Counted from the stretch's first letter, positions 270 through 59,984 are shown. The stretch: DNA of 64,000 nt from Nitrosopumilus sp. (GCA_965207075.1 CBDBLO010000002.1:1216001-1280000); one strand, 5' to 3'. The notes: a model not told the origin generated them from the letters alone. Made by a program: numbers and translations.

Positions 270-1325
270 TCATGAATATTCAGTTCCACCACCCCTGACC
301 AAATATTTCGGGCTCACGCTCTTGAGCATCACCCGTCCCTGCATGTCCGACCGCTCCGGCACGGGCCGCACTACCACGCCCTCGCGTACGTGGTCCGCCC
401 CCGGTACGAGCGACGGGCCGGACGTATGTTCTTCCAGCGCCTCCAGTGAGAACGGGCCCTTGTAGGCCAACGGGGCATGTCTCAGCCTCAGGCCGCCTCG
501 GACCAGGTCTATGTCCGACTGCGTGACGTACGTGCCGTCGGACAGCATGACGTCAAAGACGGCCATGTCAAGATCAGTCCCGTAGTGCAGGTCCTGCACA
601 TCGCGGCCGTAGATCTCGCAGAACACGTGGACCGGCCCGTCGTCACCGTCCTTGCCGCGTGTTGCGCGCAGATCCTTGGTAATCGCGTACAGGTCGTGCG
701 CGTACCGTCCGGCCATCCGCGTGTAGATGTTGTCCACGCCGTCGGCAAACACGAGCTGGGATGCGGCCCACCCCTTGCTGGACACCGCTATGGAGTCGTA
801 CGGCCTGACCGCGCAGTAGCACAGCACGCCGTGCACCTTCTCGTGCATCGTGACGGGCTCGCCCTCCTGCAGCCTGCCGGGGTGGTTCTTGATGTTCTCA
901 ACGTCGTATGACGCGAGTTTGTCATTGCCGCCGTACCGCACGACCTTGCCCCTCATGTCCGTGGGTATGACCGGCTCGTACTTTGTCACTCCGAGCAGCT
1001 CCGTGCAGTCGGCCCCCTCCTTCCATTTCCACCCGTCGAGTTGTTTGCCGCTGTATATCAGCCCCTGGGAGAGCACGCCGCGCAGCCGCTGGGCGCTCAC
1101 GCGGTTGTGCTTCTTCCCGCCCAGCTTGCCGACCAGCCCCATCTCCTCCAGTATCGATTTGGGGACGATCGCCTGCTCCGGTATGTACGCGGCCAGGTCG
1201 CCCGTCTTGTACATGCCCTTGGGCACGACGCACTTGTACCCCATCACCACGGCAATCTCCAGCCTGTCGGCCTCGGGGTGCTTCTCGACCTGCAGCCTAT
1301 GCATCTCTACTGCAAAGCTGGCCAT
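270..1325 (-). CDS. RNA ligase, DRB0094 family (N-terminal tRNA-binding/OB-like domain + Rnl2-type nucleotidyltransferase)
   Basis: HPEADRLE...VVPKG..YIPE..RLRGVLSQGL N-domain; EKVHG motif I, EIYG, FDV, REGVVV, LKSVSPKYL. Confidence 0.9.
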   Translation of the reverse strand: MASFAVEMHRLQVEKHPEADRLEIAVVMGYKCVVPKGMYKTGDLAAYIPEQAIVPKSILEEMGLVGKLGGKKHNRVSAQRLRGVLSQGLIYSGKQLDGWKWKEGADCTELLGVTKYEPVIPTDMRGKVVRYGGNDKLASYDVENIKNHPGRLQEGEPVTMHEKVHGVLCYCAVRPYDSIAVSSKGWAASQLVFADGVDNIYTRMAGRYAHDLYAITKDLRATRGKDGDDGPVHVFCEIYGRDVQDLHYGTDLDMAVFDVMLSDGTYVTQSDIDLVRGGLRLRHAPLAYKGPFSLEALEEHTSGPSLVPGADHVREGVVVRPVPERSDMQGRVMLKSVSPKYLVRGGGTEYS

Positions 1326-1441
1326 CAGCTACCCGCCCCACCCACGGGTCCGAAATACGCGACGTAAAGCATGAACAACGCAAAGGCCACGAACATAACT
1401 ATGCATGCAACCGACAAGTTTGACCTCCCGCGGGCGGCCAT
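1325..1441 (-). CDS. 38-aa single-TM protein
   Basis: MAARGRSNLSVACIVMFVAFALFMLYVAYFGPVGGAGS; TAATG and TGATG overlaps on both sides. Confidence 0.55.
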   Translation of the reverse strand: MAARGRSNLSVACIVMFVAFALFMLYVAYFGPVGGAGS

Positions 1442-1584
1442 TACGGATTACCCCGAAACTCATCACAAGAGCAAGGCATGGTGACTCCCTCGCCGCAGTA
1501 TTCGGCCTTGATGGATACGGTGCACTCACCGCCGCCTATCTTATGATACTCGTAGCCGTGGCCGCAGTCGCAGAGCGGGGACAT
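1441..1584 (-). CDS. 47-aa Zn-finger microprotein (CxCGHxxxxH...CxCxxF)
   Basis: MSPLCDCGHGYEYHK...PCSCDEF; coupled by TAATG. Confidence 0.65.
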   Translation of the reverse strand: MSPLCDCGHGYEYHKIGGGECTVSIKAEYCGEGVTMPCSCDEFRGNP

Positions 1585-1740
1585 TAGGTTGGCACCTCCG
1601 CGCTTATTGGTGCCTCCCCGACTGGTTCAAAAAACGACGCCGGGTTGGGTTCGTCCTCCACCAGCAGTATGAGTACCATCAGCCCACCCACTCCTCTGCC
1701 GAACCGTATTTTCCCATAACATCACCAATATTATCATATC

Positions 1741-1763
1741 ATTTATAAATGTTAGGTTATTAT
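1741..1763 (-). promoter_or_regulatory. Archaeal promoter (TATA box TTTATAAA) identical to 17952-17974
   Basis: ATTTATAAATGTTAGGTTATTAT, AT-rich island ~25 nt upstream of an ATG on minus strand. Confidence 0.75.
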
Positions 1764-1880
1764 GCCCTGCGGTATTTCCAGCATACCCACGGGGCGGCGG
1801 TCTCGCTCATTGCACACACACAACGCGTTTGTACATAAGGCGCCGGCCTCCAGCGGACAGGCAGAATGACGCGTGTATGG

Positions 1881-2096
1881 TCATGGCGCGGACTTCTGCG
1901 GCCTTCGTATGATCCGCAGCCGCACGGCGCATTCCTCGCAGTAGATGTACTTTCGGATGCCCGGCCTAGAGTTCTTGCTCACCACGGCGGTCCCCGGAAA
2001 GCACTCCGCGCCGCACTGGCGGCAGTCCGTATGGTGTCCGAGACGGCGCCTGTTGCTGTACTTGGCCGTGTCCATGACAAAGCGCTTGGCGGGCAT
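1881..2096 (-). CDS. Zn-finger protein, CxxC...VS...CxECAVRL family
   Basis: CRQC...VVSK...YCEECAVRL; TGATG coupling. Confidence 0.7.
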   Translation of the reverse strand: MPAKRFVMDTAKYSNRRRLGHHTDCRQCGAECFPGTAVVSKNSRPGIRKYIYCEECAVRLRIIRRPQKSAP

Positions 2097-2347
2097 CAGG
2101 CGGCCGTCACCTCTGAAAGTTCGCACACGCCGAGCCGGACGGCGCACTCGGCGCAGTATCGCTTGCCGTTCAGGCGCCGGGGCTTGGAGACGGCGACGTC
2201 CCCGGGCGCGAACTCGCGGCGGCAGTTGCCGCATCCCGTATAGGGGGTGCGGCGTCCCGAGGCGTGCCCGCGCCTAGCGTCCGTCGCCTGCTGCCTGCGC
2301 CGGCGGCCGTCCTGCTGGTCCAGCCACTTCTGGCTGACGTGTATCAC
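2096..2347 (-). CDS. Zn-finger protein, CAVRL family
   Basis: PYTGCGNC..FAPGDVAVSK..YCAECAVRLG; GTGA overlap start. Confidence 0.7.
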   Translation of the reverse strand: MIHVSQKWLDQQDGRRRRQQATDARRGHASGRRTPYTGCGNCRREFAPGDVAVSKPRRLNGKRYCAECAVRLGVCELSEVTAA

Positions 2348-2625
2348 CGTGACCGGAGCCACGCGTCCACCTCCGAAGCGGTGCATATTCCAAGCCTCAC
2401 GGCGCATTCCACGCACCAGTGTTTGCGGTGCTTGCCGCTCGGCCTGCTCACGGCCAGGCTTCCCACGGACAGTTCCGTCCTGCATTCGCAGCACGCGGTA
2501 TACGGCGACTTGCGCCCGGCCGAGCGACTGCTCCGCATGGTGGCGTGGGCCTTGAGTTCCTTGTCCTGCAGGGTGCGCTGGTATGTCAGCCACCGGCGTT
2601 CTATGCGCATTATGAATGCCGGCAT
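2344..2625 (-). CDS. Zn-finger protein, CAVRL family
   Basis: PYTACCEC..VSR..WCVECAVRLGIC. Confidence 0.7.
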   Translation of the reverse strand: MPAFIMRIERRWLTYQRTLQDKELKAHATMRSSRSAGRKSPYTACCECRTELSVGSLAVSRPSGKHRKHWCVECAVRLGICTASEVDAWLRSR

Positions 2626-2894
2626 CAGGGGGGAGCCCCCTGCCTCGCCGCGTCCACAATGCGGCGGACCTCCTGCATGCTTTCCACGCGCCGCATGGAG
2701 AACGCGCCGGCGCGGTGCGGCTCGTAGAACGCGTGCTCGACGGCCGCCATCAGGGGCGTCCAGATGCCGGGAACCTGGACCGCCCTGTTGCGCGGCATCC
2801 CGGCGCAGCACTCCACGCAGTAGTAACGCTCGCCGGCTCCGTCGTAGTTGAGGACAAGCATGGTTATCGCGCCGGCGGCGTGGACGTCGCTCAT
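2625..2894 (-). CDS. CxxC...HAxxxPH putative Zn-binding protein
   Basis: YYCVEC...VEHAFYEPH; homologous to both halves of 8998-9630. Confidence 0.65.
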   Translation of the reverse strand: MSDVHAAGAITMLVLNYDGAGERYYCVECCAGMPRNRAVQVPGIWTPLMAAVEHAFYEPHRAGAFSMRRVESMQEVRRIVDAARQGAPP

Positions 2895-2895
2895 C

Positions 2896-3036
2896 TTACG
2901 CCGCCTCCCTGTACGTGCGGCACCCGCAGGAGGGGCAGCCGCCGGGCGCCACGCACGACCCGCGGCACGGGCACCGCAGGCACTTCCGCTCGCCCATGTA
3001 GTGGTCGTCCCTGGGGCAGCCGCACATGCAGGGCAT
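2896..3036 (-). CDS. 46-aa Cys-rich microprotein
   Basis: MPCMCGCPRDDHYMGERKCLRCPC...CPSCGCRTY. Confidence 0.6.
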   Translation of the reverse strand: MPCMCGCPRDDHYMGERKCLRCPCRGSCVAPGGCPSCGCRTYREAA

Positions 3037-3037
3037 G

Positions 3038-3424
3038 TCAGCACCCCTCCTCCCCCGGGCGGTGGGCCAGCGTGTCCACGTTGCGGATGATCGGGTTCCC
3101 AACACCGCGCTTCCCCAGTTCCTCCCGCGCTATATCGCATGACTCTGGAAGTATCTCCATGTGCTCGATGCGGGCCGCCGTCTCGGGCGTGATGATCCCG
3201 GCGTCCATGCCGCGCGTGGTGAAGTTGGCCTCGCCCGCGAACGGGTCGATGATGTGGACGCGCTCCCCGTTGAGGCCATCGGCAACGCCGAACTCGGTCT
3301 TCAGGATGTGGTCTACGGAGTTCTCGATAAAGTCGATGAGCTCGGGCGGGGTGAACACCTGCACCTTTTTCTTGTCTTGGCGGGCCTTTGCGACGTCCTC
3401 GTCCGTGAGGGGCTTGTCCGTCAT
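3038..3424 (-). CDS. Truncated adenine-MTase-like protein (SAM-binding half, Type ISP R-M-like), no NPPY motif
   Basis: VFTPPELIDFIENSVDHILKTEFG..GL...VHIIDPFAG resembles Type ISP MTase motifs X and I; ends before motif IV. Confidence 0.7.
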   Translation of the reverse strand: MTDKPLTDEDVAKARQDKKKVQVFTPPELIDFIENSVDHILKTEFGVADGLNGERVHIIDPFAGEANFTTRGMDAGIITPETAARIEHMEILPESCDIAREELGKRGVGNPIIRNVDTLAHRPGEEGC

Positions 3425-4002
3425 GTCAACACCTGCTGCCCTGCACCCCGGTTCTTCTGGGCGATCTCCTCCAGTATCTTTGTCCGCTTGGCCTCTATTA
3501 GCTCGCGTTCATGCTTGATTGCGTTATTGGTCATGCCCATGCGCGGCTCCCCCATGGCGGCGCTGCGGCGTTCGATTGCAGTCTTCTCGGCGTGGCATGG
3601 CTTGCACATCAGTTGCAGGCGTTCCTTGGCAAGGTCGGGGTTGCGTAGGTAGTACCTCACTATCGAATTAGAGTTTCCGATGGCCTTGCGGTCTACGGAG
3701 CCGTCCGACCTGATGTGGTCTAAATGTAGGTTGGACGTGACATGGCACACGACGCAGGAGCCGCCGAGCAGCTTGAGGATGTCGCGGCGCATGGCATAGT
3801 ACATCTTGCTCTTTGAATCCGCGTCGCATTTCTTGCACCACGTCTTAAGCCCGTGCGAGTTGACCTTGCTCTTGCTGAAGTGGTCGTAGGACAGGGTCAG
3901 CCCGCACTTCTTGCAGATGCGCATCTTGTTCTTGTCCAAAAGCTGCCTTTGGCGGCGCTTTAGATCCAGACTGCGAATTGCAATCTCGTCAAGCTCGCTC
4001 AT
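3421..4002 (-). CDS. HNH endonuclease with N-terminal Zn finger
   Basis: CKKC..F...GLKTWCKKC; LGGSCVVC..LHLDHI..DG...LQLMCKPCHAEKT. Confidence 0.82.
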   Translation of the reverse strand: MSELDEIAIRSLDLKRRQRQLLDKNKMRICKKCGLTLSYDHFSKSKVNSHGLKTWCKKCDADSKSKMYYAMRRDILKLLGGSCVVCHVTSNLHLDHIRSDGSVDRKAIGNSNSIVRYYLRNPDLAKERLQLMCKPCHAEKTAIERRSAAMGEPRMGMTNNAIKHERELIEAKRTKILEEIAQKNRGAGQQVLT

Positions 4003-4523
4003 TTGGCGGCCTCCTGTTTTCTGCGTCGCATGATTGTAAGCCTTGCCCATCGACAGTCGTTGCACAGTATTTTGAGGTGCTTGACGGCCTGCTCCGGGCG
4101 CTTGAGATAGTACGCGTACCGCATCGAGGGGAACGTTGGAACGTCGGGGTTGTGTACGACCTGCGTGACATAGGCGCGACTGCTGTCTTTTATGGCGGTC
4201 TTGCAGATGTGGCATGTCGTGCCGCCTAACAGCGACAGGATTCCGGCGCGTACGCTGGAGTTGTGCCTGTGGGATTCCGCGCTGTGGCATTTCCGGCAGA
4301 TGTGCTGCAGCCCGTCTGCCGTGCGGCAGTGGCGCGCGAACTTCTCGCGGGGCAGTGGCTTTCTGCATCTAAAGCACATCTTCAGGTTGTTGGCGGCGGC
4401 CTGCCTCTTGATCAGTGTGGCCAGCTTTACCTGCAGTTCTAGTTCCCGCTGATTGATCGCGTCAAGTTCCTCCTGCGTGGTGATGTATCCGGGAGTCGGC
4501 TTTTTCTCACGGTTGGTGTGCAT
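3999..4523 (-). CDS. Degenerate HNH paralog of 3421-4002
   Basis: Same architecture (CFRC..DGLQHICRKC; LLGGTTCHIC; YYLKRPE..LKILCNDC) without DH and final His. Confidence 0.7.
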   Translation of the reverse strand: MHTNREKKPTPGYITTQEELDAINQRELELQVKLATLIKRQAAANNLKMCFRCRKPLPREKFARHCRTADGLQHICRKCHSAESHRHNSSVRAGILSLLGGTTCHICKTAIKDSSRAYVTQVVHNPDVPTFPSMRYAYYLKRPEQAVKHLKILCNDCRWARLTIMRRRKQEAAK

Positions 4524-4894
4524 TACGACATGTCCCTCCTCGGCTGGTATGACATGCATCCGCAGGACGACACCATGCAACGGCGCGTGCGCTCCATCGG
4601 CTTTGTCTGCTCGTGGGCGTCGGACGGGTGGCGGCACCCGCGGCATGTCGAGTCGTTGGCCGCCACGTTGCGGATTGCCTGCGCGCGTCTCTGCATTTTT
4701 TCGGCGATGTACATGGCTTTGCAGTCGCATATCATGCAGCCCTTTTGGTGGGAGGTTGCGGGGTGGCCGCACCCGTCGCATGTGACGCGTTCTGCCGCAG
4801 AAGGTATGGCGCGCTGGCGGTACTTTACGCGCTTCCTCATGCCTATGGCATTGAGGTGTCCTGTCTTCGGGTGGACGTCAGACCAGCGGGGCAT
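4523..4894 (-). CDS. Protein with two CxxCxHxxxxH...CxC fingers
   Basis: CDGCGHPATSH..CDC and CRGCRHPSDAH..CGC. Confidence 0.7.
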   Translation of the reverse strand: MPRWSDVHPKTGHLNAIGMRKRVKYRQRAIPSAAERVTCDGCGHPATSHQKGCMICDCKAMYIAEKMQRRAQAIRNVAANDSTCRGCRHPSDAHEQTKPMERTRRCMVSSCGCMSYQPRRDMS

Positions 4895-5085
4895 TATCCT
4901 GTTGACACCTCCGGCATCCTGACCGGTCCCTGCCTTTTTTGAGCCTCCCACAGCAGGCACGTGCATATGACAAAGTCGCCCGCCTCGTTGGTGTCTATGT
5001 GGGTGCACCGCGGGCCTGCCTTGCCGAAATGCAAATGGATGCGTTCAAGGTGGCCGCAGCCGCGGCAGAACTTTTCGTCGATCAG
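4894..5085 (-). CDS. CxxCxHxxxxH...CxC microprotein, probable near-cognate (CTG) start
   Basis: CRGCGHLERIH...CTCLLW; CTGA overlap with upstream stop. Confidence 0.6.
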   Translation of the reverse strand: MIDEKFCRGCGHLERIHLHFGKAGPRCTHIDTNEAGDFVICTCLLWEAQKRQGPVRMPEVSTG

Positions 5086-5567
5086 CCGGATCCTCCCCCC
5101 CGCTGCATGTGCTGCTCGAGCATCCCCCTGTACTCCCACGCCTTCTCCTGCATGGCACCGGGCCACGGCCAGTTGCCGCCGTCTGCTATGAGCTCAAGCG
5201 AGCCGCACTTTACGGAGCCGTCGGGCTGCCTGCCGAACGGCATCAGGCGGATGTCCAGCAGGTCGGCGTCCTTGCACCGTTCGCGGGCGGCCTTTACGGC
5301 GTCCCCGTTGATGTCGGCGCCGTATATCTCGACGCGTGCGGCGCCCCGGTCGCGGGCTTGGCGCATGCCCTCTGCCAGCAGTATGCCGGAGCCGCAGGCG
5401 GGATCGAATATGCGGACGCGCCTGCCCCTGTGGTCCTCGGCCCCAAACGTCATCCCCACGAGCAGCGTCGCCGCGGCGGAGGACGTATAGTAGGAGGCGG
5501 CCTCCTTGCGGTGCTCACTGTCACCGGTTTCGGGGTCGTACTTGACTGGCCTTTTTTCGTTTGTCAT
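5082..5567 (-). CDS. Truncated adenine-MTase-like protein (SAM-binding half), no NPPF/Y motif
   Basis: YYT (motif X), IFDPACGSGILL (motif I), IYGADIN (motif II), GSLELI; ends before motif IV. Confidence 0.75.
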   Translation of the reverse strand: MTNEKRPVKYDPETGDSEHRKEAASYYTSSAAATLLVGMTFGAEDHRGRRVRIFDPACGSGILLAEGMRQARDRGAARVEIYGADINGDAVKAARERCKDADLLDIRLMPFGRQPDGSVKCGSLELIADGGNWPWPGAMQEKAWEYRGMLEQHMQRGGGSG

Positions 5568-5821
5568 TTCTTCACACGCCTCCGGGTGTCATTCCGGCTG
5601 CCCGACCGGGCGTAGCGGCCCTGGTGGTCGGTGCGCGGCATGACTGCCTGCGCGGTCTGGGTGGGCATCTGCGACGCGTCCTCCCCGGGCATGTCCATCG
5701 GGCGGCCGCACTCGACGCACTCCATGTTGGACGTCCAGCCCGTGCCGCCGTCGCCGGTGTCGCCGAACGTCTCGTAGTATACGGTGCCGCCGCACTTGGG
5801 GCACACTGGGGGCTTGGTCAA
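5564..5821 (-). CDS. Zn-ribbon protein
   Basis: CPKCGG...CVECG. Confidence 0.65.
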   Translation of the reverse strand: MTKPPVCPKCGGTVYYETFGDTGDGGTGWTSNMECVECGRPMDMPGEDASQMPTQTAQAVMPRTDHQGRYARSGSRNDTRRRVKK

Positions 5822-6024
5822 CCCGCGGCCTCCTTCAGCATTTGCGACACGCTCTTGTGGTACGTGCGTATCCTGAGCTGCTTGCCGCAGCAGGGGCAGT
5901 GCCTGCCATCCCAGTCAGTCTGCATGTCACATGGGCGGCAAACCTTGGTTGCGCCGCGCCTGCGCTGGCCTCCTTCCATCAGCGTGCCGAGCGAGTATCT
6001 GTCGCATTTGCCGCGGCATGCCAT
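5818..6024 (-). CDS. Small Zn-finger protein (CxGxC...CxxC..WDG.xCPCCGxxLR)
   Basis: MACRGKC...CRPC..WDGRHCPCCGKQLR; pattern familiar from thaumarchaeal small proteins. Confidence 0.7.
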   Translation of the reverse strand: MACRGKCDRYSLGTLMEGGQRRRGATKVCRPCDMQTDWDGRHCPCCGKQLRIRTYHKSVSQMLKEAAG

Positions 6025-6683
6025 CAGTCCCGCACCAACCTGTTCTTGCGCGCGTGTCTGTTGTTGCCGACCGTCCCCCTTGCGCGGCGGGCGGCTATTG
6101 CGCGGTGTCCCATGCCGGTTGACGGCGCGGCGGCGTCGCAGCCCGTGCGGCGGCACGTTCCAAGGAGGCGGTAACATCTTTGGCAGTACGACCCCGGTTC
6201 CTGCTCCGCGCGGCGGCGCATCTCGGCCACTCCGCCGTCGCTGACCCCAAGGCCGCGGGCGGTGCGCCGCGATACTGTGCGCTGCGACCTGACCTTGCCT
6301 ACGGTGACATGCTCGCGGGCGGCATGCACCTGCAACCGCTCCCTTGTTTGTTCGTCCTCGGGACGGGCGGAGTATATCTCGCAGGCCAGGTGCTCGGGGG
6401 CCACGCACGTGGTGTTGCGGCACGATCTCGTTATGGTGGCGCCGGCGGGGGGCGCGTGTCCGCGCCACGCCCTGAACAAGTGCGGCAGTATGCCGACGCG
6501 CTTGCCGCCGATCTTGGCCTCCGGCTGTCCCTTCTTGGACTTGCCCGTCCAGGGGCGGCAGCCGTTCTTGTCGGCCGCGCCAATCGCTCCGCGCCGCAGC
6601 ATGTCGCACGCCCGTTCGCGTACAGCGGCGGTCGCGGGATCACCGGCGGCCTCGGCCAGCCTGCCGTAGGTCAGGGGTGGCAC
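6024..6683 (-). CDS. Degenerate HNH_3-like homing endonuclease domain protein
   Basis: GCRPWTG...TRSCRNTTCVAPEHL versus canonical CWxWxG...HxCxNxxCVNPxHL. Confidence 0.65.
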   Translation of the reverse strand: MPPLTYGRLAEAAGDPATAAVRERACDMLRRGAIGAADKNGCRPWTGKSKKGQPEAKIGGKRVGILPHLFRAWRGHAPPAGATITRSCRNTTCVAPEHLACEIYSARPEDEQTRERLQVHAAREHVTVGKVRSQRTVSRRTARGLGVSDGGVAEMRRRAEQEPGSYCQRCYRLLGTCRRTGCDAAAPSTGMGHRAIAARRARGTVGNNRHARKNRLVRD

Positions 6684-7756: not shown

Positions 7757-7773
7757 CCGATTCACTCCTTTCC

Positions 7774-12625: not shown

Positions 12626-13005
12626 GGCGGCGCGCCCCCCGTGTCGCCGACCAGTACCGACTTCTTGTCCTCGTGCTTGAGGACGAACTCGGTGCGTATG
12701 CCGGCGAACTGTATGACGAACCTGACCCTTGGCTGGGACAGCAGCCATGTGAGTTCCTCGGTCCTGTTCCTTCCGAGCCGCATGGTCATGGCGCTGTCAT
12801 GCGGACCGTCCACGCGCACGCAGGCGCGCCTGTCGCCACTCTGTTTCGCGGCCGCCGGCACCCGCCCTCCTGCGCGGCACGGGTTGCAGACCCGCCTGCC
12901 GTCCGGCGCGGTGGATACTGAGTTGGTCTTTTTCCGGCACGCGTCGCACGTGATGGTCTTGGCGCCGCCGAGCGTGCACTCGCCGGCCGGTCGCAGCGGC
13001 ATCAT
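12622..13005 (-). CDS. Zn-finger protein
   Basis: CDAC..DGRRVCNPC. Confidence 0.6.
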   Translation of the reverse strand: MMPLRPAGECTLGGAKTITCDACRKKTNSVSTAPDGRRVCNPCRAGGRVPAAAKQSGDRRACVRVDGPHDSAMTMRLGRNRTEELTWLLSQPRVRFVIQFAGIRTEFVLKHEDKKSVLVGDTGGAPP

Positions 13006-13256
13006 GGGGCGTCCCCCTCCTTCGGTTGGAACCCCGGGCAGTCGCACCCCATTGTCATGCAGTGGTGGCGGCCGCCCGCCAGCTCAAAGTGATAGCCTTC
13101 CTGGTGCCCGCACCCTTCGTTGGCGCACGTGTTCCCCTGGCACTGCTCGTGCCGTTCGCATGATATTTTGTCCGGCGCCTCCAGCACGTGGCAGTCGCAC
13201 GTGGGACACTTGGAGCCGGGGGCGTCCAGCCACATGCCGTTTATCCACGCGCCCAT
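13002..13256 (-). CDS. Cys/His-rich microprotein with CGHxxxxH...CxCxxF
   Basis: CGHQEGYH...GCDCPGF. Confidence 0.65.
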   Translation of the reverse strand: MGAWINGMWLDAPGSKCPTCDCHVLEAPDKISCERHEQCQGNTCANEGCGHQEGYHFELAGGRHHCMTMGCDCPGFQPKEGDAP

Positions 13257-13423
13257 CAGGTCACCCTCCTTCGATCGTTGCGGGCGCACCTCTTGCAGGT
13301 GTCAGTGTAGCCGACCTGCTTGTCCAGACACTGCGAGCAGAAGGGGCCGCTGCAGATGGAGCAGTACGTGTCGCCGTCCCTGGCCCCGTTTTCTGCGTCG
13401 TGGTTTTCACAGTAGGGCATCAT
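13256..13423 (-). CDS. B-box-like Zn microprotein
   Basis: CENH...CSICSGPFCSQC...CKRC. Confidence 0.65.
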   Translation of the reverse strand: MMPYCENHDAENGARDGDTYCSICSGPFCSQCLDKQVGYTDTCKRCARNDRRRVT

Positions 13424-13578
13424 GCACCGGCCTCCACGTAGTCGTGCAGCCCGTCGTGGCCGCACTCGGGGTCGGAGCATGTCAGGTTGCCGCCGTCCTG
13501 CCCGGTCTTCTCGTCGGGCTCCGGGAAGTGGAGGTCGTCGCCGTTGCACTCGCCGCAACGGACCACGTATCTGCCCAT
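13420..13578 (-). CDS. Zn-ribbon microprotein
   Basis: CGEC...CSDPECGH. Confidence 0.6.
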   Translation of the reverse strand: MGRYVVRCGECNGDDLHFPEPDEKTGQDGGNLTCSDPECGHDGLHDYVEAGA

Positions 13579-13709
13579 CAGCAGTCCCCTCCCCCGTCGC
13601 AGTAGCACTCACGGCCGGTCGTATGGCAGCAGCAGTCGCACGCCCCGCCGTATGTGGTTCCGTTGCACAGGGTGTGCATCTTCTGCATGCAGTCGCTGGA
13701 CTTTGCCAT
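13578..13709 (-). CDS. Metallothionein-like Cys-rich peptide (43 aa)
   Basis: MAKSSDCMQKMHTLCNGTTYGGACDCCCHTTGRECYCDGGGDC. Confidence 0.6.
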   Translation of the reverse strand: MAKSSDCMQKMHTLCNGTTYGGACDCCCHTTGRECYCDGGGDC

Positions 13710-13957
13710 TATTGCGCCCACGGCTCCTTTGGCAGCAGGTCGGCCACCGTCGATTCCCCGTACGGTATGTCTGGGTTGATGCCCTGGCACTCCTTGAGTG
13801 TGTATTCTGTGTTGGGCGGGCAGGGGCACGGCGGGTTCGGGAAGGGGAAGGAGTCGCCGATGCCGGTGGTCCCACGCGGAAACCAGTATCGTCCGCTGTA
13901 GTCCGAGTATTCGTAGCCGCAGTTGTCGCAGGTGGCGCGGACAAGGAAGCGGGGCAT
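13709..13957 (-). CDS. Zn-ribbon-like protein
   Basis: CDNCGY...CPC. Confidence 0.6.
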   Translation of the reverse strand: MPRFLVRATCDNCGYEYSDYSGRYWFPRGTTGIGDSFPFPNPPCPCPPNTEYTLKECQGINPDIPYGESTVADLLPKEPWAQ

Positions 13958-14211
13958 CAGGAACCGACCCCCCACGACGGCCCACAGGCGACCGTGCACT
14001 GCTCGACGGCGGACGGCATGACCGCGTACGACATGGCCACGGCGAGGTCCACCGTTCCCAAGGCGGCAAATATGCAGCCGGACACGTAGTGCCTGGGGCG
14101 CAGTCGGATCAGGTAGATGTACGCGAGCGCATACATCATGGCGGACAACACGAGCAGCACGAACATGAGCGCGAGCGGCACGGCCGCTTCCGGCGTGGCC
14201 GGCCAGAGCAT
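13957..14211 (-). CDS. Two-TM membrane protein, paralog of 18437-18730
   Basis: AMMYALAY...GTVD...QCxVACGP shared. Confidence 0.7.
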   Translation of the reverse strand: MLWPATPEAAVPLALMFVLLVLSAMMYALAYIYLIRLRPRHYVSGCIFAALGTVDLAVAMSYAVMPSAVEQCTVACGPSWGVGS

Positions 14212-15002
14212 CAGGCGAACACCTCCACGGCGTCGGCGCATATGTCGCGCGCCCTGACTGACGGGACCGTGCACTTGATGTTGTCCGGTTCCGTTATCTT
14301 CGCATAGACCATGATGTCCCTGACGGTGCGGATCTGGCTTGACGTGGCCCCTGCGGGCGCGCCGGATATTGTGATCTTTGAGTTGTATTTCTGCGCGCAG
14401 ACGACGCCGGTCTGCGCGATGTACTCCTTCACATCCACGCTGCGCCTTATGTCGAGCCCGCTCATTCTCATGGCCTCGTCGGCCATGCCGGTGTGGGCGC
14501 CAAAAACTGACGCCACAGTATAGCCGTCTTTCAGTATGAACGCCGAAAAGTCCGTGTGCGGGCCGATGTGCGTGATGTCGGTATGCAGGTCGATGCGGTC
14601 CTCCAATCTGCGGAGGTTATCCGGGTTGTAGGGGTTTGACTTTAGTGGCTTGGGCACATCCTTTGGATCTGGGTCATGCAGGTGGTTGCTCATGTGCTTC
14701 CAGACCTCGGACTCGGTGCGCGCAATCGAGCCGCGCTTGAGGCACCACGGGCATGAATACGCATACGCCTTCTTCTTCTTGCCGGCATCCTGCTTGGCCG
14801 ACTCCTCGGCCAGCATCACGCGGTAGCGGTACATCTTGTCCTTGGCCTTGTACCATTTCCTGTCATACTCTTCGTACACGCGCTCCCTGTCATCACGCGG
14901 TATCCGGCTGTCACTGGCGTGCACGCTCCCGCGCTTTGCCTCCAACTGGTCCATCTCGCGGCGAGCGGACTCGATCTTCTCGGTGATCGTTGCGGCCTTC
15001 AT
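14211..15002 (-). CDS. Coiled-coil + C2H2 Zn-finger protein
   Basis: YSCPWC...VWKHMSNH. Confidence 0.7.
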   Translation of the reverse strand: MKAATITEKIESARREMDQLEAKRGSVHASDSRIPRDDRERVYEEYDRKWYKAKDKMYRYRVMLAEESAKQDAGKKKKAYAYSCPWCLKRGSIARTESEVWKHMSNHLHDPDPKDVPKPLKSNPYNPDNLRRLEDRIDLHTDITHIGPHTDFSAFILKDGYTVASVFGAHTGMADEAMRMSGLDIRRSVDVKEYIAQTGVVCAQKYNSKITISGAPAGATSSQIRTVRDIMVYAKITEPDNIKCTVPSVRARDICADAVEVFA

Positions 15003-15163
15003 CAGTCCCCGGCCTCCGCTGACGACGTCCGCACCCTCCTGCCGGTGCTGTTGTCTATTACCGTCTTGGCCTCGTGCCCGCACATGCTGCAGGTCGCAAT
15101 GTTTGTCTGGACGTTGATCCTTGCAATGCATCCGCACTTGACGCAGGAATAGGAATGCGGCAT
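15002..15163 (-). CDS. Zn-ribbon microprotein
   Basis: CVKCG...CSMCGH. Confidence 0.65.
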   Translation of the reverse strand: MPHSYSCVKCGCIARINVQTNIATCSMCGHEAKTVIDNSTGRRVRTSSAEAGD

Positions 15164-15411
15164 TAGGGATACCCCTCCACCAGTCCGTGCGTCTTGCCGC
15201 GTATGAAGCGCTTGTCGGGCACGCCGTGCTTGGCGCACATCGGGTGGTCGCGCATCTGCACGGTGGGCGCCTGCCTGTCCCGCGTAAAGTACAGGCCGTC
15301 GGCCGCCTCGCCGCAGTGGTGGCAGGTCATTATCAGGTTGCCGCAGCGCCCGCAGTCGTCGCCGCGCATCGTGCACACCGGCTTGTCGCACTTGCAGGTA
15401 GCGCGGGGCAT
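15163..15411 (-). CDS. Multi-Zn microprotein
   Basis: CKC..CGRC..CHHC..CAKH. Confidence 0.65.
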   Translation of the reverse strand: MPRATCKCDKPVCTMRGDDCGRCGNLIMTCHHCGEAADGLYFTRDRQAPTVQMRDHPMCAKHGVPDKRFIRGKTHGLVEGYP

Positions 15412-15590
15412 CAGTCCTCAGGCCCCCTGGTGTCCTTGAGCAGGCCGTCAAGCTCCCGCTGGACGCGCGCCGGGTCTTTCAGCATGCAGTCCATGCAGTA
15501 CGAGATGCACCTGTCGTTGCTGGAAGCGGTCATGCCCCAGTCGTCACTAATGGCGCTGTGGCAGGAGTCGCACGTGCCGATTATGCCCAT
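15411..15590 (-). CDS. Zn-finger microprotein (59 aa)
   Basis: CDSC...YCMDC; TGATG both sides. Confidence 0.65.
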   Translation of the reverse strand: MGIIGTCDSCHSAISDDWGMTASSNDRCISYCMDCMLKDPARVQRELDGLLKDTRGPED

Positions 15591-15787
15591 CAGTCATCGG
15601 CCTCCGGTTCAGATGGGGCGACCCATCGGGTTTCGTATGGGTTTACAAGCAGGTTTGGTTCGTCCGAACTAACACATGTTCTGTGCACCTGTTCAAACAA
15701 CTCAACGAGTCCATCATCGTTGTGGTGCAGACGAACCTCCAAGTCGTCCTGCCTGATTGGCTCCCTACACACATTGCAATCTGCCAT
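15590..15787 (-). CDS. LIM-half-like Zn microprotein
   Basis: CNVCREPI...VHRTC. Confidence 0.65.
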   Translation of the reverse strand: MADCNVCREPIRQDDLEVRLHHNDDGLVELFEQVHRTCVSSDEPNLLVNPYETRWVAPSEPEADD

Positions 15788-15960
15788 CAGTCCTTCACCC
15801 CCTCCCTGTTGCACGCGCCCTCGTGGCACGTCTCGGCGTGGCACGCGCCGGGGTCGCAGAACTCCCTGACGTACAGGCCGCACTGCCCGCACTTTGCATG
15901 GCCGCATCCGTCGTCTGACACGTGGTCGGGCGAGGCGCAGCAGCACCATTTTTGGGACAT
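15787..15960 (-). CDS. Metallothionein-like Cys-rich peptide (57 aa)
   Basis: WCCCASPDH..CGHAKCGQC..FCDPGACHAETCHEGAC. Confidence 0.65.
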   Translation of the reverse strand: MSQKWCCCASPDHVSDDGCGHAKCGQCGLYVREFCDPGACHAETCHEGACNREGVKD

Positions 15961-16334
15961 CAGAGCCCGGCCTCCCTGCGGTACATGTTCAGCATGTTCT
16001 GCTCGAACCGGGCGCGGTGCTCCATGACAAAGTGGTTGGCGAACTCGCGGGCGACTGACAGCGCGAACTCCCTGCCGCCGTGCTCGTACGCGGCGGGTAT
16101 CCAGATTGAATGGCTGACGCATTCCCGGCAGAGCGTGCCGTCGCGCGTGTACGCGTCGGTAAAGCCCCAGGGCTCGGCCACCGCGCAGGCGGCGGGCGAC
16201 TCGATCAATGCATGCTCGTGTTCCTCGCTGAGGCGCCCGGTTCCGGCGAGCCTGCCGCTCCACGCGGGGCACACCAGTTCCAGCACGGTGGCCTTTTCGG
16301 CGGCTGGCGCCAGGACGGTCGCGGTACTGGACAT
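15960..16334 (-). CDS. Hypothetical Zn-binding protein
   Basis: CREC...HFVMEH. Confidence 0.6.
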   Translation of the reverse strand: MSSTATVLAPAAEKATVLELVCPAWSGRLAGTGRLSEEHEHALIESPAACAVAEPWGFTDAYTRDGTLCRECVSHSIWIPAAYEHGGREFALSVAREFANHFVMEHRARFEQNMLNMYRREAGL

Positions 16335-16588
16335 CAGGCCAAAACCTCCGGTTTCCTTTTAGCCTCCCGGCGGAGCGCCCTGAGTTCCTCCAGGGCCTTC
16401 CGGCAGCACTCCCTCTGGGCGGGCGTGTGCAGGTGGCGCTTTTCACGGCGGCACGGCGCGCAGACGGCGATCACGCTGCAGAACCCCTCGGGGCACCGGA
16501 AGTAGCGCAGCCTCTCCACGCCGTCGCCGGGTCGGCGGCCGCACATGTCGCAGCACCGCCGGCCGTCAAGCGTGTATATGCCGCCCAT
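16334..16588 (-). CDS. Zn protein, paralog of 17004-17441
   Basis: MGxxYxxDG..CCDxCG...RCPxxxC...AVCxxC shared. Confidence 0.7.
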   Translation of the reverse strand: MGGIYTLDGRRCCDMCGRRPGDGVERLRYFRCPEGFCSVIAVCAPCRREKRHLHTPAQRECCRKALEELRALRREAKRKPEVLA

Positions 16589-17004
16589 CAGGCCGGCACC
16601 CCCGGGGCCGCTGCCGCCAGCGGCTTTTCCTGCTGGCCGCCTTCGCGCGGGGCCTCTATGATATATTCGGAGTACCCAGGGCACTTGCACGGCTCGCAGT
16701 ACTTGTGCTTGTCCTCGCCGCGCCTTTGCCAGCTCAGCGGAAGGCAGTCATGTATGGTTGCCTTGCACGGGCCTTCACCGCCGTCGTGCTCGTCCTCGTC
16801 GTGGAAGCACCGGATGCAGTAATGGTCGGTCTGCGGCGCGTTGCCGAGCCCGCGTGCTTCCTGCAGTATCTCTGGATGCCCGGTCTCAACCACCCACGGC
16901 TGCCGCCTGTGGCACTCCTTGCAGGCCACGCATCCCTCGTCGCCGCACTCAAAGCTGGTGGAGTCGCAGGCGGGGTTCACGCATCCCATCCCAAACTCGC
17001 CCAT
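16588..17004 (-). CDS. Multi-Zn protein with CxxCxHxxxxH...CxC finger
   Basis: CIRCFHDEDEH...PCKCPGY. Confidence 0.7.
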   Translation of the reverse strand: MGEFGMGCVNPACDSTSFECGDEGCVACKECHRRQPWVVETGHPEILQEARGLGNAPQTDHYCIRCFHDEDEHDGGEGPCKATIHDCLPLSWQRRGEDKHKYCEPCKCPGYSEYIIEAPREGGQQEKPLAAAAPGVPA

Positions 17005-17441
17005 CAGGCCGCCACCCCCGCCAGTACCATGACGCGCTCGCGGATTTCGTCAGAGGTTTTGCCCTCCACGTGTATCCTGCGCGCCTCCTTGCAGATCTTT
17101 CGGTGCGTATTGCCGTCGCCCTCGCGGGTGTTGATGCAGCTGGCGTAGCGGTGCTTCCCGGCCAGGCGGCAGTCCGTGCACACGGCCCACTTCTGGCACC
17201 AGTCGTAGGGGCACCGCACGCACCTTACCTCGAACGGGACGCTCCTTTCATACCGCAGTATCTTCTCGCCCGGATCCACCGCATCCGTGTACAGGGTCCA
17301 CTCGTACCCGTTGCGAAGCACCACGGGGTGGTACCCGCGCTTGGGCACGTCGCTCCTGAGAACGCGCGTGCGGCCACTGCGGCGCGTCTTGCCGCAAAAG
17401 TCGCAGCACAGCAGGCCGTCGTCGCTGTAGCAAAAACCCAT
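17004..17441 (-). CDS. Zn protein, paralog of 16334-16588
   Basis: MGFCYSDDGLLCCDFCG...RCPYDWCQKWAVCTDC. Confidence 0.7.
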   Translation of the reverse strand: MGFCYSDDGLLCCDFCGKTRRSGRTRVLRSDVPKRGYHPVVLRNGYEWTLYTDAVDPGEKILRYERSVPFEVRCVRCPYDWCQKWAVCTDCRLAGKHRYASCINTREGDGNTHRKICKEARRIHVEGKTSDEIRERVMVLAGVAA

Positions 17442-17683
17442 TACGCCCCGGCCTCCGTCGAACCGACTTCGGGCGCCCCCGCGACGGTTGGCGCGCAGGC
17501 CATCCACCAGGACAGCTCGAACACGTGCCCGCCGCAGAACCTGCACGTGAGTCGGCGGTTTTCGTCCTCGCTGAGCGCGCCGGACTGCTCGTACTTGCCG
17601 CAGCCCTCGTTGGTGCATTTTGATACAAGCACGCGCATGAGGCGTGGCTGCTGCACGACTGTGGGCGCTTCGACGACTGACAT
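17441..17683 (-). CDS. Zn-ribbon microprotein
   Basis: CTNEGC...CRFCGG. Confidence 0.65.
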   Translation of the reverse strand: MSVVEAPTVVQQPRLMRVLVSKCTNEGCGKYEQSGALSEDENRRLTCRFCGGHVFELSWWMACAPTVAGAPEVGSTEAGA

Positions 17684-17931
17684 CAGCGTCTCGCCTCCCG
17701 CCGGCAGCTGTTGCATATGCCGGCGCCGCCAAACCTGACGACGCGCCTGAGCATCTCCATGCTCTCGACTGCGCACCCCGGGCAGCCCTTCGTGGACTGC
17801 CTGCCCTGCGGCCGGACGTCGGAGCGCCGCGCCCTTTTTGGCGCTGGAAAGAACGACGCTACGCTGTATCCGGCTTCTTTTACGGCCTGCTCGACTGTCA
17901 TGCCGGGCCCGGCCAGAATAGATTTTGACAT
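17683..17931 (-). CDS. First gene of the long operon; Zn-finger protein
   Basis: CPGC...CNSC; ATG ~22 nt below TATA box. Confidence 0.7.
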   Translation of the reverse strand: MSKSILAGPGMTVEQAVKEAGYSVASFFPAPKRARRSDVRPQGRQSTKGCPGCAVESMEMLRRVVRFGGAGICNSCRREARR

Positions 17932-17938
17932 GCTTTGT

Positions 17939-17974
17939 ATAATAACCTATTATTTATAAATGTTAGGTTATTAT
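17939..17974 (-). promoter_or_regulatory. Promoter with TATA box enclosed by perfect 11-bp inverted repeat (operator)
   Basis: ATAATAACCTA-TTATTTATAAATGT-TAGGTTATTAT. Confidence 0.8.
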
Positions 17975-18294
17975 TTTGGGTGTTTTGTGATACATGCGGG
18001 CGCGGCGGCTGGAAGTTCCAGCCCGGCGCGGAGCACGTCGAGTTTGGACACGACGTTTTTGGACAGGGCGCACGCGAGGCAGTAGAATTTGTGACCGCGG
18101 CGGACCGGGACGTACGGCAGGCCAGGGCGCGCCGGTATGTTGCAGACGGCGCAGTGGTCGCACCTTATGCGCGCCATGGCGGCGTAGCGGGTAAGGTGCC
18201 CCGAATGTATGTCGGCGGCTGCCTCCCTGGCGTACCTCCGGTAGCGCGAGGCGGTGATGGCAGACATTATGCGGGGGGCGCCGGACCGGGACAT
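17971..18294 (-). CDS. Divergent member of CAVRL Zn-finger family
   Basis: CAVC..PG..YV...FYCLACA. Confidence 0.6.
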   Translation of the reverse strand: MSRSGAPRIMSAITASRYRRYAREAAADIHSGHLTRYAAMARIRCDHCAVCNIPARPGLPYVPVRRGHKFYCLACALSKNVVSKLDVLRAGLELPAAAPACITKHPK

Positions 18295-18436
18295 CGTGGA
18301 CGGTCTCCTGATTAATCCGGCCAGTTCCTCGCCTTCAGGGTCTTGCCGCACCTGCAGCCGCTGGCGCATACGCATGAAAGAACGTAGAAGATGCCGGCGA
18401 CTGGACGCACAGGCAATATGAGCAGGTCTGCCGCAA

Positions 18437-18730
18437 TCATGACCCGATGCCCCCGTCCAAAGGCCCGCAGGCCACCACGCACTGCCCGGCCGGCGCCTGC
18501 GGCATAACGTACATCAGGACTACCACGATGTCAACCGTCCCCATGAACGCGTACAAGGCGCCTACGATTACAAGCCTGCGGCGCGTCGATGCGCTGGCGC
18601 CCGCCCCGCCGCCCGTGCTCCTGTACATGGACAGGGCCCTGTATGCGAGCGCGTACATCATGGCCGCCAGCACGAACAGCCCGAACGTGATGGCAAGCTG
18701 GGCGGCCTCGTCGGCAGTCGGCAGCATCAT
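18437..18730 (-). CDS. Two-TM membrane protein, paralog of 13957-14211
   Basis: AMMYALAY...GTVD...QCVVACGP. Confidence 0.7.
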   Translation of the reverse strand: MMLPTADEAAQLAITFGLFVLAAMMYALAYRALSMYRSTGGGAGASASTRRRLVIVGALYAFMGTVDIVVVLMYVMPQAPAGQCVVACGPLDGGIGS

Positions 18731-18776
18731 ATGACGGAGCCCCCCACTGCCGATCCCAAATGCGTGTGACGCAACA

Positions 18777-19013
18777 TCAGGGCGACGCCCCCACCATGAT
18801 CTGCTCCTCGATGTCCCGATGCTCCTGCCTCCAGTGCGTGAGCGCCGCGTTCAGGGCGGCCTCCTTGCACTGCCGGGCGGTGGAGCCGGTGTCCGGCAGG
18901 CTCATGACGTCGTCGTAGGCGCGGAGGACCAGGGTGCAGGAGCCGCACTCCTTGGCCTTGCGGAGCAGGCGCATGATGTAGACGGTGCCCTGCGCGGTGA
19001 GACGTGCCGGCAT
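18777..19013 (-). CDS. Zn-binding microprotein
   Basis: CGSC...HWRQEH. Confidence 0.6.
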   Translation of the reverse strand: MPARLTAQGTVYIMRLLRKAKECGSCTLVLRAYDDVMSLPDTGSTARQCKEAALNAALTHWRQEHRDIEEQIMVGASP

Positions 19014-19147
19014 CAGTCTTCACCCCCGCCGAGCGTGGACACGCCGCCGTCGTAGGTGCATATGATTTTGTCGCCGTCCGGCACGTGGCCGTGCTCGCGG
19101 CACTTGCCGCAGCGGCCGCATACCAGGTTGCAGTTCTGGCAGCCCAT
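19013..19147 (-). CDS. 44-aa Cys-rich microprotein
   Basis: MGCQNCNLVCGRCGKCREHGH; TTAAA box ~23 nt upstream. Confidence 0.6.
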   Translation of the reverse strand: MGCQNCNLVCGRCGKCREHGHVPDGDKIICTYDGGVSTLGGGED

Positions 19148-59983: not shown

Positions 59984-59984
59984 C

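Follow-up and report, generated by a model that had tools for sequence, protein, structure and literature searches.

A variable chain of some 50 coupled, cysteine-rich small genes in a mobile-type island of an ammonia-oxidising thaumarchaeon

Here, we analysed a stretch of 64,000 nucleotides from Nitrosopumilus sp. (GCA_965207075.1), positions 1216001-1280000 of contig CBDBLO010000002.1 (hereafter C2). We call this whole stretch the window, and positions given without a contig name are counted from its first letter. Its first part carries an array of small, cysteine-rich open reading frames (ORFs) on the minus strand, most of which start in the stop codon of the preceding gene. The genome comprises 2.23 Mb in two contigs with 60% GC. 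An initial annotation of this DNA had suggested a thaumarchaeal host, which agrees with our findings: the small subunit (SSU) rRNA scored 1459.5 bits with the archaeal model and 1088.5 bits with the bacterial one, and the genome encodes AmoA (387 bits). No McrA was found in the genome. Presence of AmoA and absence of McrA identify the host as an ammonia-oxidising thaumarchaeon.

Genes were called with a codon log-odds model trained on the long ORFs of the genome. A first pass, based on non-overlapping picks and giving no reward to overlaps, yielded 48 minus-strand ORFs between 1.5 and 19.15 kb, in which 31 of 46 same-strand junctions were overlaps of 1 or 4 nt; for the genome outside this stretch, the figure was 199 of 1406. 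A second pass rewarded coupling and, after addition of one missed ORF (15787-15590), led to a chain of 48 ORFs on the minus strand (1881-17931) that covers 99% of this stretch. In the final count, stop and start codons overlap at 41 of the 47 junctions, in the forms TGATG (20), ATGA (11), TAATG (5), TTGA (3) and GTGA (2), exactly the types listed in the initial annotation. ATG serves as start codon in 40 ORFs, GTG and TTG in four each. In control runs, the sense strand gave 39 of 46 coupled junctions at 99% cover, the antisense strand 11 ORFs at 12% cover and five shuffles 1-4 ORFs each; neither of the latter two contained a single coupled junction, and the proposed one-strand chained array is thus borne out. 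Chain ORFs are 26-263 aa long, and 40 of the 48 fall into the range of 40-170 aa proposed before. The term ‘microproteins’ was nonetheless an overstatement, given a median of 87.5 aa and only 11 of 48 ORFs with at most 70 aa. Five additional small ORFs upstream (19147-17971) and three downstream (1679-1325) bring the total to about 56 between 1325 and 19147.

High-GC DNA yields many long spurious ORFs, and 272 ORFs of at least 30 aa were counted in 21 kb. Might the chain then consist of chance frames in a region that is non-coding or coding on the other strand? The antisense strand and the shuffles contained no comparable chain, and composition and ribosome-binding sites speak for genuine genes. 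GC contents at the three codon positions (0.61/0.53/0.84) resemble those of host genes (0.60/0.45/0.79), with the third position being the highest in all 47 of 47 ORFs. A Shine-Dalgarno motif, called where 5 or more nucleotides match the complement of the 16S tail and mostly GGAGG, precedes 33 of the 47 internal starts; its 3' end usually lies 8-12 nt before the start, the outliers among the 33 being two motifs at 13-14 nt and two at 3-6 nt. A simpler version of the test was positive for 32 of 46 chain starts and 31 of 56 starts in the other arrays of the surrounding genomic island (described below), compared to 165 of 1069 host genes (15%). Host genes whose own start is coupled gave 55 of 143, and control positions inside genes gave 4 of 37 and 102 of 1069. 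For most cistrons (1881-17683), the GGAGG of the downstream gene lies within the last codons of the upstream gene, and many products thus share Gly/Glu/Ala-rich tails (...EAGA, ...GGGED, ...EGGA). With overlaps at 41 of 47 junctions and GGAGG at a fixed spacing, the predicted translational coupling is extreme.

Traces of selection point in the same direction. For eight ORFs of the window, two further species of the genus provide orthologues, and the ratio of nonsynonymous to synonymous substitution rates (dN/dS, Nei-Gojobori) was 0.26-0.53 in seven cases and 0.81 in one (18777-19013); flanking genes of annotated type gave 0.18-0.38. A ratio near 1, named at the outset as an observation that would speak against functional genes, was hence not found for seven of the eight testable ORFs. 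Cysteines are conserved at 31 of 35 aligned positions of the orthologues, including 11 of 11 in ORF 17004-17441, and CxxC motifs are kept while the rest of each protein diverges. Differences to metagenome contigs fall on third, first and second codon positions in 20, 12 and 8 cases (n = 40), a small, selected sample comprising the best supported of 1373 differences. Homologues exist as well: 13 of 52 array ORFs match contigs of two relatives or a virus at E≤1e-5. Judging from composition, ribosome-binding sites, selection and homologues, we regard the chain ORFs as real genes. The chance-frame reading was rejected on the grounds of the controls, the fixed Shine-Dalgarno spacing, the dN/dS values below 1 with their conserved cysteines, and the homologues in other genomes; we assign it practically no probability.

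The density of Cys/His motifs emphasised in the initial annotation proved real. Cysteine makes up 300 of 5316 chain residues (5.64%) compared to 1.13% in the rest of the genome and 1.67% in those of its ORFs with at most 220 aa, which contain 0.28 CxxC motifs per 100 aa versus 1.53 in the array. At least one CxxC occurs in 41 of 48 chain ORFs, at least two in 28, and 36 of 52 ORFs contain one or more pairs of Cys/His knuckles according to a crude pattern search. Sub-threshold Pfam hints point to zinc-ribbon and zinc-finger families (Zn_ribbon_4, DZR_2, Zn_ribbon_12, zf-C2H2 and others). High cysteine content would also be expected of metal sinks resembling metallothioneins or of precursors of Cys-rich secreted or modified peptides, and ORF 10983-11219 has one weak match to Gallidermin (E 0.043, below the cut-off). 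Metallothioneins consist of roughly 30% cysteine, far above the 5.6% found here, and the cysteines of the array sit in paired knuckles; a metallothionein-like nature was therefore rejected. Such knuckles are a hallmark of structural sites, and their cysteines stay at the same positions in orthologues (31 of 35), which makes the ‘zinc sink’ considered earlier unlikely. Ribosomally synthesised and post-translationally modified peptide (RiPP) precursors were rejected as well, since the ORFs have no common leader peptide and the Pfam and PHROG scans revealed no peptide-modifying enzyme in the chain; moreover, the ORFs include few small paralogue groups, and only two look membrane-bound. Taken together, we consider sinks or peptide precursors very improbable.

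Individual members of the array differ widely. The first ORF (17683-17931, minus strand, 82 aa) starts with MSKS, carries a C-terminal CxxC...CxxC and is a conserved leader gene. It has five homologues with 57-94% identity, occupies the same place behind the promoter in the relative G367 (66%), also occurs in the relative G338 (54%) and belongs to no Pfam family; it is a candidate regulator. Family A2 (CxxC...CxxCAVRLGIC, zinc-ribbon-like) is represented by three tandem paralogues at the end of the chain (1881-2625, minus strand) and by two further ones at 6748-7080 and 17971-18294, making five members in all, and each paralogue of the window has closer relatives of its own. Outside this genome, A2 has 22 homologues, with four invariant cysteines across 24 sequences; ENA/Logan contigs of 66-458 kb are among the places where such homologues lie. 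In an order-wide scan of 300 other genomes, 23 gave weak matches at the C-terminus, and the eight of these regions that were inspected contained no Cys-rich arrays; among the five closest relatives, a single weak N-terminal match in G367 was found. The subfamily alignment A3 had no match in GTDB representative genomes or IMG/VR. Family A4 (MGFxY..CCDFCG...CPYGxCQAWAxCxDC) comprises two paralogues on the minus strand (17004-17441, 145 aa, and 16334-16588, 84 aa) that flank an unrelated ORF with 13 cysteines (16588-17004), for which a search of the ESM Atlas gave a best score of 0.85 as a lead only. ORF 17004-17441 retrieved 16 representative clusters at E≤1e-3; eight cysteines are invariant in 18 sequences, and none of the 18 members belongs to a Pfam family. 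The AlphaFold model of A2 reached a pLDDT of 82.7 and that of A4 87.3. For A2, Foldseek returned nothing at E≤0.001, and VIA-align gave a best Z of 4.1 (PARP-type, RING and C1 zinc modules), below the noise level stated for the tool; for A4, no PDB entry matched at E≤0.001 (best Foldseek E 0.56). Since both families fold confidently in silico and have no significant solved relative, the array may hold new zinc folds.

Several minus-strand members resemble enzymes. Two HNH-endonuclease-like paralogues with an N-terminal double CxxC (3421-4002, 193 aa, and 3999-4523, 174 aa) match PHROG families, the former an HNH family (2.9e-15) and a Lar-like restriction-alleviation family (phrog_5558, 2.6e-9), the latter more weakly (phrog_5558 at 4e-4). 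ORF 6024-6683 (219 aa) is endonuclease-like (phrog_1872, 4.5e-13; HNH, 2.2e-6), and ORF 5082-5567 (161 aa; PF02384, E 5.6e-7) resembles a methylase fragment, its match being confined to the N-terminal, SAM-binding portion of the N6 DNA methylase profile (positions 20-93 of 311). A second Cys-poor ORF besides this one, with 128 aa and a DPFAG motif, lies at 3038-3424. ORF 13957-14211 encodes a small hydrophobic protein of membrane type and is paralogous to ORF 18437-18730 (41% identity over 98 aa). The adjacent largest ORF of the chain (14211-15002, 263 aa) matches no Pfam or PHROG family and, among 5.8 billion clustered proteins of similar length, only itself; a homologue with 38-43% identity is found in G338. 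All of these ORFs lie on the minus strand, as does the upstream group of five ORFs with 42-107 aa (17971-19147), four of which are Cys-rich while the fifth is the paralogue of membrane type; the DNA ahead of this group showed no TATA-like site.

Directly ahead of the chain, the sequence suggests a promoter on the minus strand (17939-17975), in which the TATA box TTTATAAAT is embedded in a palindrome with 11-bp arms (ATAATAACCTA / TAGGTTATTAT). The first ATG (17931) follows about 22 nt downstream of the TATA box, the usual distance between TATA box and transcription start in archaea, and the transcript and its first cistron are thus probably leaderless. The palindrome around the TATA box would suit a dimeric repressor that blocks access of TBP/TFB. 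Only two AT-rich TATA-like sites exist between positions 1 and 21000, one at the head of the chain (17934-17978) and one behind it (1727-1754), which fits a single promoter for the chain. The earlier proposal of a single evident promoter thus agrees with the DNA, in which just one such site heads the chain. Allowing up to two mismatches to the 22-nt core, we counted five copies genome-wide, at C2:1130222(+), 1144346(+), 1212707(-), 1217762(-) and 1233973(-), all within about 105 kb of the GC-rich island described below. Each precedes an operon on its own strand, and three of them head Cys-rich arrays; the second copy within the window (1728-1763, minus strand) heads three small ORFs and an RNA ligase gene. 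The distance between TATA box and ATG is the same at all copies and in G338 and G367, where diverged versions of the promoter likewise head arrays. The promoter 20-mer was found at up to one mismatch in none of the 120 other genomes of the genus (121 searched). Loci matching a promoter 19-mer in JGI metagenomes (19) and GTDB genomes (6) were dismissed as chance matches, the contigs having 24-49% GC and no tblastn match to the array; IMG/VR contained no such locus.

How stable is the array among relatives? As DNA, it has no match in 40 of 40 related genomes, and megablast against 50,697 phage records returned none either. Near-identical copies do occur in sequencing runs from three studies, with no RNA run among those listed, and a diverged relative with about 90% identity is present at high depth in a run labelled as sponge metagenome (X7). 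A 24-kb contig of another species (G367, contig C69) retains the right flank (nucleotidyltransferase 96%, small ORF 96%, Mrr 74%), the diverged promoter and the first ORF, followed by an array of about 27 ORFs. Orthologues of 17004-17441 (81%), 12125-12625 (80%), the sub-block 8226-6748 (75-88%) and 18777-19013 (48%) are mixed there with orthologues from other arrays of our genome. The array then runs directly into genes that lie 11-30 kb away in our genome, namely the end of the array at C2 1207-1213 kb, a 1141-aa protein and T2SSF (84%). On a 30-kb contig of G338 (C35), about 65 small ORFs, most of the 75 called there, form a plus-strand run with many 1-nt overlaps; its contig-wide cysteine content is 3.65%, and its homologues are scattered over three arrays of our genome. 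Several deletions in X7 are spanned by contigs that extend far to either side, namely at 17429>17681, close to ORF 17441-17683, at 3036>4991, where 281 nt stand in place of four ORFs, the two HNH genes among them, and at 8791>9661 and 12026>12216. Several joints with short sides, such as 16606>17002 and 17023>17929 (22 nt), were not relied on, and uncovered parts of the stretch in runs X6, X7 and X10 were left out of the interpretation. Loss, gain and shuffling of cassettes, which the initial annotation had proposed to look for between strains, are hence seen in G367, G338 and the sponge metagenome, and conserved flanks around changed content mark the array as a cassette zone. That the proteins are conserved and their genes reshuffled between relatives is the pattern we would expect if a mobile element used them as a toolkit for host takeover or counter-defence.

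The array is embedded in a larger island of mobile type. GC content is 0.62-0.68 over most of C2:1.105-1.285 Mb, with dips to 0.57-0.61, compared to 0.60 genome-wide. Genes reminiscent of conjugation include a VirD4/TraG-like protein of 1342 aa (C2:1147414-1151442; TrwB_AAD_bind 38 bits, cut-off 20.5; TraG-D_C 32.3 bits; T4SS-DNA_transf 22.1 bits) and a VirB4-like ATPase (54372-56486; AAA_10 40.5 bits, cut-off 27.5; DUF87/HerA 27 bits), whose assignment refers to the AAA_10 and HerA domain families only, the TraG P-loop match being below its cut-off. Further members are a T2SSF/TadC-like gene (50.2 bits), a FlaI-like T2SSE ATPase within the window (63.8 bits), a primase-D5 helicase (Prim-Pol, D5_N and DUF5906), an Eco57I-like methylase and a weakly matching integrase (C2:1127833-1129134, Phage_integrase 22.3 bits) that adjoins a conserved GTPase gene. 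Backbone homologues exist in the complete genome of a relative, G414 (integrase 58%, VirD4 47%, T2SSE 73%, T2SSF 59%). Five further arrays of small Cys-rich ORFs lie at 56553-63617 and at C2:1134559-1144326, 1156952-1164266, 1189429-1197465 and 1206886-1212665, two of them headed by the same promoter. Adjoining the array head upstream, a conserved flank of defence-type genes (19205-25710) encodes a Mrr/ZorD-like nuclease, three Pol-beta nucleotidyltransferases (PDC-S09-like), a mad2-like ORF and a CARF/Csa3-like ORF, with orthologues in G367 that are 74-96% identical. The island also holds a second HMG-CoA reductase gene (C2:1212927-1214060, 279 bits; the better copy at C2:2112984 scores 340 bits).

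Other features were recorded in and around the island. Next to the tRNA-Met gene of its GC-rich DNA, a ribonucleotide reductase of 922 aa with an ATP-cone is encoded (40912-43680). The 1141-aa protein of unknown family beside a sister array has copies at C2:1203460-1206885, 720920-724012 and 1770754-1773897; a small double-zinc-ribbon ORF related to ORF 5818-6024 precedes those at 720920 and 1773897. Five other species of the genus carry strong homologues (47-63% identity) of this protein, whose copies measure about 1100 aa. Being multi-copy, with three copies in our genome and occurrence in 26 of 151 genomes of the genus including ours, it is no marker of the element. To the left of the island, a 653-aa protein with eight collagen triple-helix stretches (C2:1122900-1124861) and a 1753-aa surface-type protein (P_proprotein, DUF285, Ig-like; C2:1108554-1113815) look eukaryote-like or adhesin-type. 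The smaller contig of the assembly, C1 (45,906 bp), is a variant copy (72-100% identical) of C2:41877-87224; we rejected the idea that it is a plasmid form of the island and regard it as an alternative haplotype or strain in the assembly.

Which type of element does this gene set suggest? The closest likeness is to the integrative and conjugative elements (ICEs) of thaumarchaea (Krupovic et al. 2019, PMC6563490), likewise large integrated elements in ammonia-oxidising archaea. VirD4/TraG, VirB4, TadC, FlaI/PilT and a primase-superfamily-3-helicase are common to these ICEs and the island, as far as the ICE gene content is laid out in the sections cited; a prepilin-peptidase-like gene is an ICE component as well, its counterpart within the window being a weak match (Peptidase_A24, 21.2 bits, below the cut-off of 26.5). 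According to the same sections, all ICEs carry TFIIB and their median size is 64 kb. In contrast, the island lacks the TFIIB-ParB pair and measures at least 150 kb, with undefined ends and a weakly detectable integrase. The text on ICEs in PMC6563490, its supplementary annotation aside, does not mention long Cys-rich operons of small ORFs or element-borne tRNAs, and with the same supplement left aside we found no description of such operons in thaumarchaeal elements in the literature.

Alternatively, the array could be the early or accessory region of an integrated virus, either a large provirus or a relative of the spindle-shaped viruses, rather than of a conjugative element. The genome of a Nitrosopumilaceae spindle-shaped virus (BK067792.1) contains a similar minus-strand chain of 28 small ORFs (ORF33-60) with 1- or 4-nt overlaps at 17 of 27 junctions, and its ORF23 matches the representative of family A4 (56% identity over 79 aa). 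Moreover, genes such as the island tRNAs and its RNA ligase of phage type (phrog_968, 1e-34) are often carried by large viruses. When the 75 ORFs of this virus were compared to all called proteins of the genome by BLASTP, ORF23 alone linked to the array; ORF75 weakly matched an island protein (27%), ORF62 and ORF64 matched small zinc-ribbon ORFs elsewhere in the genome, and tblastn connected the region of ORF62 to ORF 5818-6024 of the array. Matches to the spindle virus are limited to 2 of 52 array ORFs; the virus has 35% GC and, apart from these two families, no genes in common with the array. Its block contains 2.6% cysteine and CxxC in 7 of 28 ORFs versus 5.6% and 41 of 48 in the array. The genes conserved among thaumarchaeal spindle-shaped viruses comprise a capsid protein, an ATPase and a zinc-binding protein, at least in the portion of PMC10866085 used here. 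No match to Terminase_6N or the HK97 capsid was found in the genome, in which the small and hard-to-detect spindle-virus capsids were not specifically searched for, and only 2 of 10 large proteins of the window have PHROG matches (a methyltransferase and a family of unknown function). The ‘viral early region’ to which the array was at first likened finds no support in these results, given the VirD4/TraG-, VirB4-like, T2SSE, T2SSF and primase-helicase genes, and we consider a viral origin unlikely. The virus with its coupled 28-ORF chain nevertheless indicates that chaining is routine for thaumarchaeal mobile elements. Of the earlier concern that comparable arrays might already be commonplace, chaining thus stands, while length and cysteine density do not fit it; what sets the array apart is how long and how rich in cysteine it is, together with its repeated promoter and the tRNA match described below.

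The island encodes five tRNAs: His, Thr(CGT) and Cys at C2:1186525-1186747, Arg(GCG) at 192-268 and Met at 40130-40200. Each is a second copy of an otherwise single host tRNA and 55-75% identical to it; tRNA-Arg(GCG), for instance, shares 58 of 77 bases with its host counterpart. Compared to the host, the array over-uses Cys (5.1-fold), His (1.6-fold) and Arg (1.4-fold) more than any other amino acid, and CGC plus CGT account for 5.28% of array codons versus 2.39% in the host. The chance that all three of three top amino acids fall among five tRNA identities is about 1% (136/15504). The tRNA-Arg(GCG) gene (minus strand) lies directly behind the RNA ligase gene (270-1325, minus strand; PF09414), which itself follows the small ORFs at 1679-1325 and of which no match was found in IMG/VR. 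Ligase and tRNA-Arg together are reminiscent of tRNA-repair counter-measures against anticodon nucleases. Elsewhere on the chromosome, ARAGORN reported four overlapping tRNA-like calls with a 4-base anticodon (cggc) at 60-nt spacing (C2:712737-713009), probably a tandem repeat.

Could the array instead belong to the host? It might be a ‘dark matter’ island of lineage-specific small zinc-finger regulators, e.g. for adaptation to a sponge, that no longer serves a mobile element. Dark matter islands (Makarova et al. 2014, PMC4158269) are, like the array, narrowly spread, fast-evolving and mostly uncharacterised gene clusters. As far as the cited sections go, they often derive from integrated elements and reach their highest share of genes in Cenarchaeum symbiosum and Nitrososphaera gargensis (22%). 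Their category is defined by lack of conservation and, in those sections, comes without a 48-cistron operon under a single promoter, a cysteine bias or matching tRNAs. Purifying selection on the ORFs and the near-identical copies in runs of three studies would suit a host-owned island. The C(P)XCG genes of Haloferax volcanii, encoding small zinc-finger proteins, are host genes spread around the chromosome. Their products resemble those of the array as small archaeal proteins with two CxxC-type knuckles; most of the tested ones bind zinc, and their cellular roles are diverse (PMC6562870, PMC10716476, PMC11241148, in the parts cited). These micro-proteins have less than 70 aa, whereas the array has a median of 87 aa and assembles 48 genes, often with at least two predicted sites each, in one operon of a mobile island. 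A host-owned array is also difficult to reconcile with its absence as DNA from all 40 relatives, the missing promoter in 120 other genomes of the genus, a content that is reshuffled among the three genomes carrying the element, and the linkage to conjugation and replication genes and foreign tRNAs. We rate it as less probable still than a viral origin.

We thus return to a mobile, probably conjugative element and ask what its array may do. One-orientation clusters of small, fast-changing genes on conjugative elements have a bacterial parallel in the anti-defence islands of plasmid leading regions, with the families ArdA, KlcA, PsiB and SSB. None of these four families is among the Pfam matches of the array ORFs. 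Leading-region islands are thought to act on entry into a new cell; they are bacterial, belong to elements that transfer single-stranded DNA and consist of known families, according to the part of PMC11541004 cited here. As no origin of transfer is known for archaeal ICEs, ‘leading’ cannot be assigned to the array, and the resemblance may indicate a way of working, not membership. Small size, one orientation and a switchable promoter, together with fast turnover, the place beside defence genes and the nuclease- and methylase-like members, are the grounds on which we infer a function by analogy with phage early regions and plasmid leading regions. To our knowledge, no anti-defence protein has been described in ammonia-oxidising archaea. 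An anti-defence or takeover role, taken by itself, appears plausible to us, although we place it below an even chance.

A number of observations weigh against the explanation developed here. With respect to the element, the integrase match stays below its cut-off (22.3 vs 27.1 bits). In the region C2:1.127-1.285 Mb, neither TFIIB, with matches only at C2:185791, 1492723, 1649338 and 1715592, nor ParB was found, ParB_N matching only at C2:293564, 933353, 1050757 and 1766410. A search of the left end against 190 kb to the right revealed no att repeats, i.e. no direct repeat longer than 13 nt, and the island may comprise two or more tandem elements or be an old, fixed one. With respect to the products, 0 of 40 small ORFs reach the cut-off of any Pfam family, and no array product matches a known anti-defence protein or family in Pfam or PHROG, the sole hint being the Lar-like zinc ribbon on the two HNH-like ORFs. 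The products are probably zinc-binding, a property predicted from their motifs, and neither modelled family has a significant fold match in the PDB. The dN/dS analysis covers 8 of about 53 ORFs, and values of 0.3-0.5 are relaxed compared to typical core genes. Not all X7 deletions coincide with ORF borders, some cutting inside ORFs, and metagenome contigs were placed at 80% likeness, such that some joints can stem from other organisms. The match between tRNAs and amino acids was noticed post hoc, with Thr and Met not being enriched. Finally, a single transcript, leaderless initiation and translation are all deduced from the DNA sequence.

The anatomy is well supported: real genes, rich in cysteine and coupled to one another, form an operon that varies among relatives and lies in an island of mobile type. 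As a whole explanation, we favour with slightly better than even confidence that the array is a hypervariable accessory operon and belongs to a large mobile element, most likely an ICE, that is integrated into the chromosome of a sponge-associated ammonia-oxidising thaumarchaeon. We propose that the operon would be made as a single long leaderless mRNA, with internal cistrons being read by Shine-Dalgarno-assisted termination-reinitiation, and that a dimeric repressor could switch it by occluding the TATA box. The products would be small zinc-stabilised binding modules, complemented by HNH nucleases and methylase-like fragments, and might act on nucleic acids and proteins of the host or of competitors upon entry of the element into a cell or once it becomes active there; likely roles would be to counter defence, take over the host and exclude rivals. 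The island tRNAs, in turn, may meet the unusual demand of the operon for Cys, His and CGC/CGT-Arg codons. In the most far-reaching version, a conjugative element would keep a library of zinc-stabilised mini-proteins with exchangeable members, about 50 in the array and more than 100 across the island. They would be expressed from a leaderless, Shine-Dalgarno-coupled polycistron with a repressible promoter of the TATA-palindrome type, and the element would supply tRNA-Cys, -His and -Arg of its own for their translation. Such a library would be an archaeal counterpart of the anti-defence arsenals of plasmid leading regions and phage early regions, and it would include several zinc folds that have no solved relative; this full version we put forward only tentatively and regard as rather doubtful.

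The ways in which archaeal conjugative elements and thaumarchaeal viruses gain a foothold in cells are hardly understood. The operon offers about 50 small, conserved and cheaply synthesised candidates for such processes, together with a regulatory handle in the form of a palindromic promoter present in five copies. It also offers a clean natural example of how far translational coupling can go in a lineage that seldom uses Shine-Dalgarno motifs in its host genes (15%), and the match between island tRNAs and over-used amino acids is a testable example of a mobile element that may provision the translation of its own cargo.

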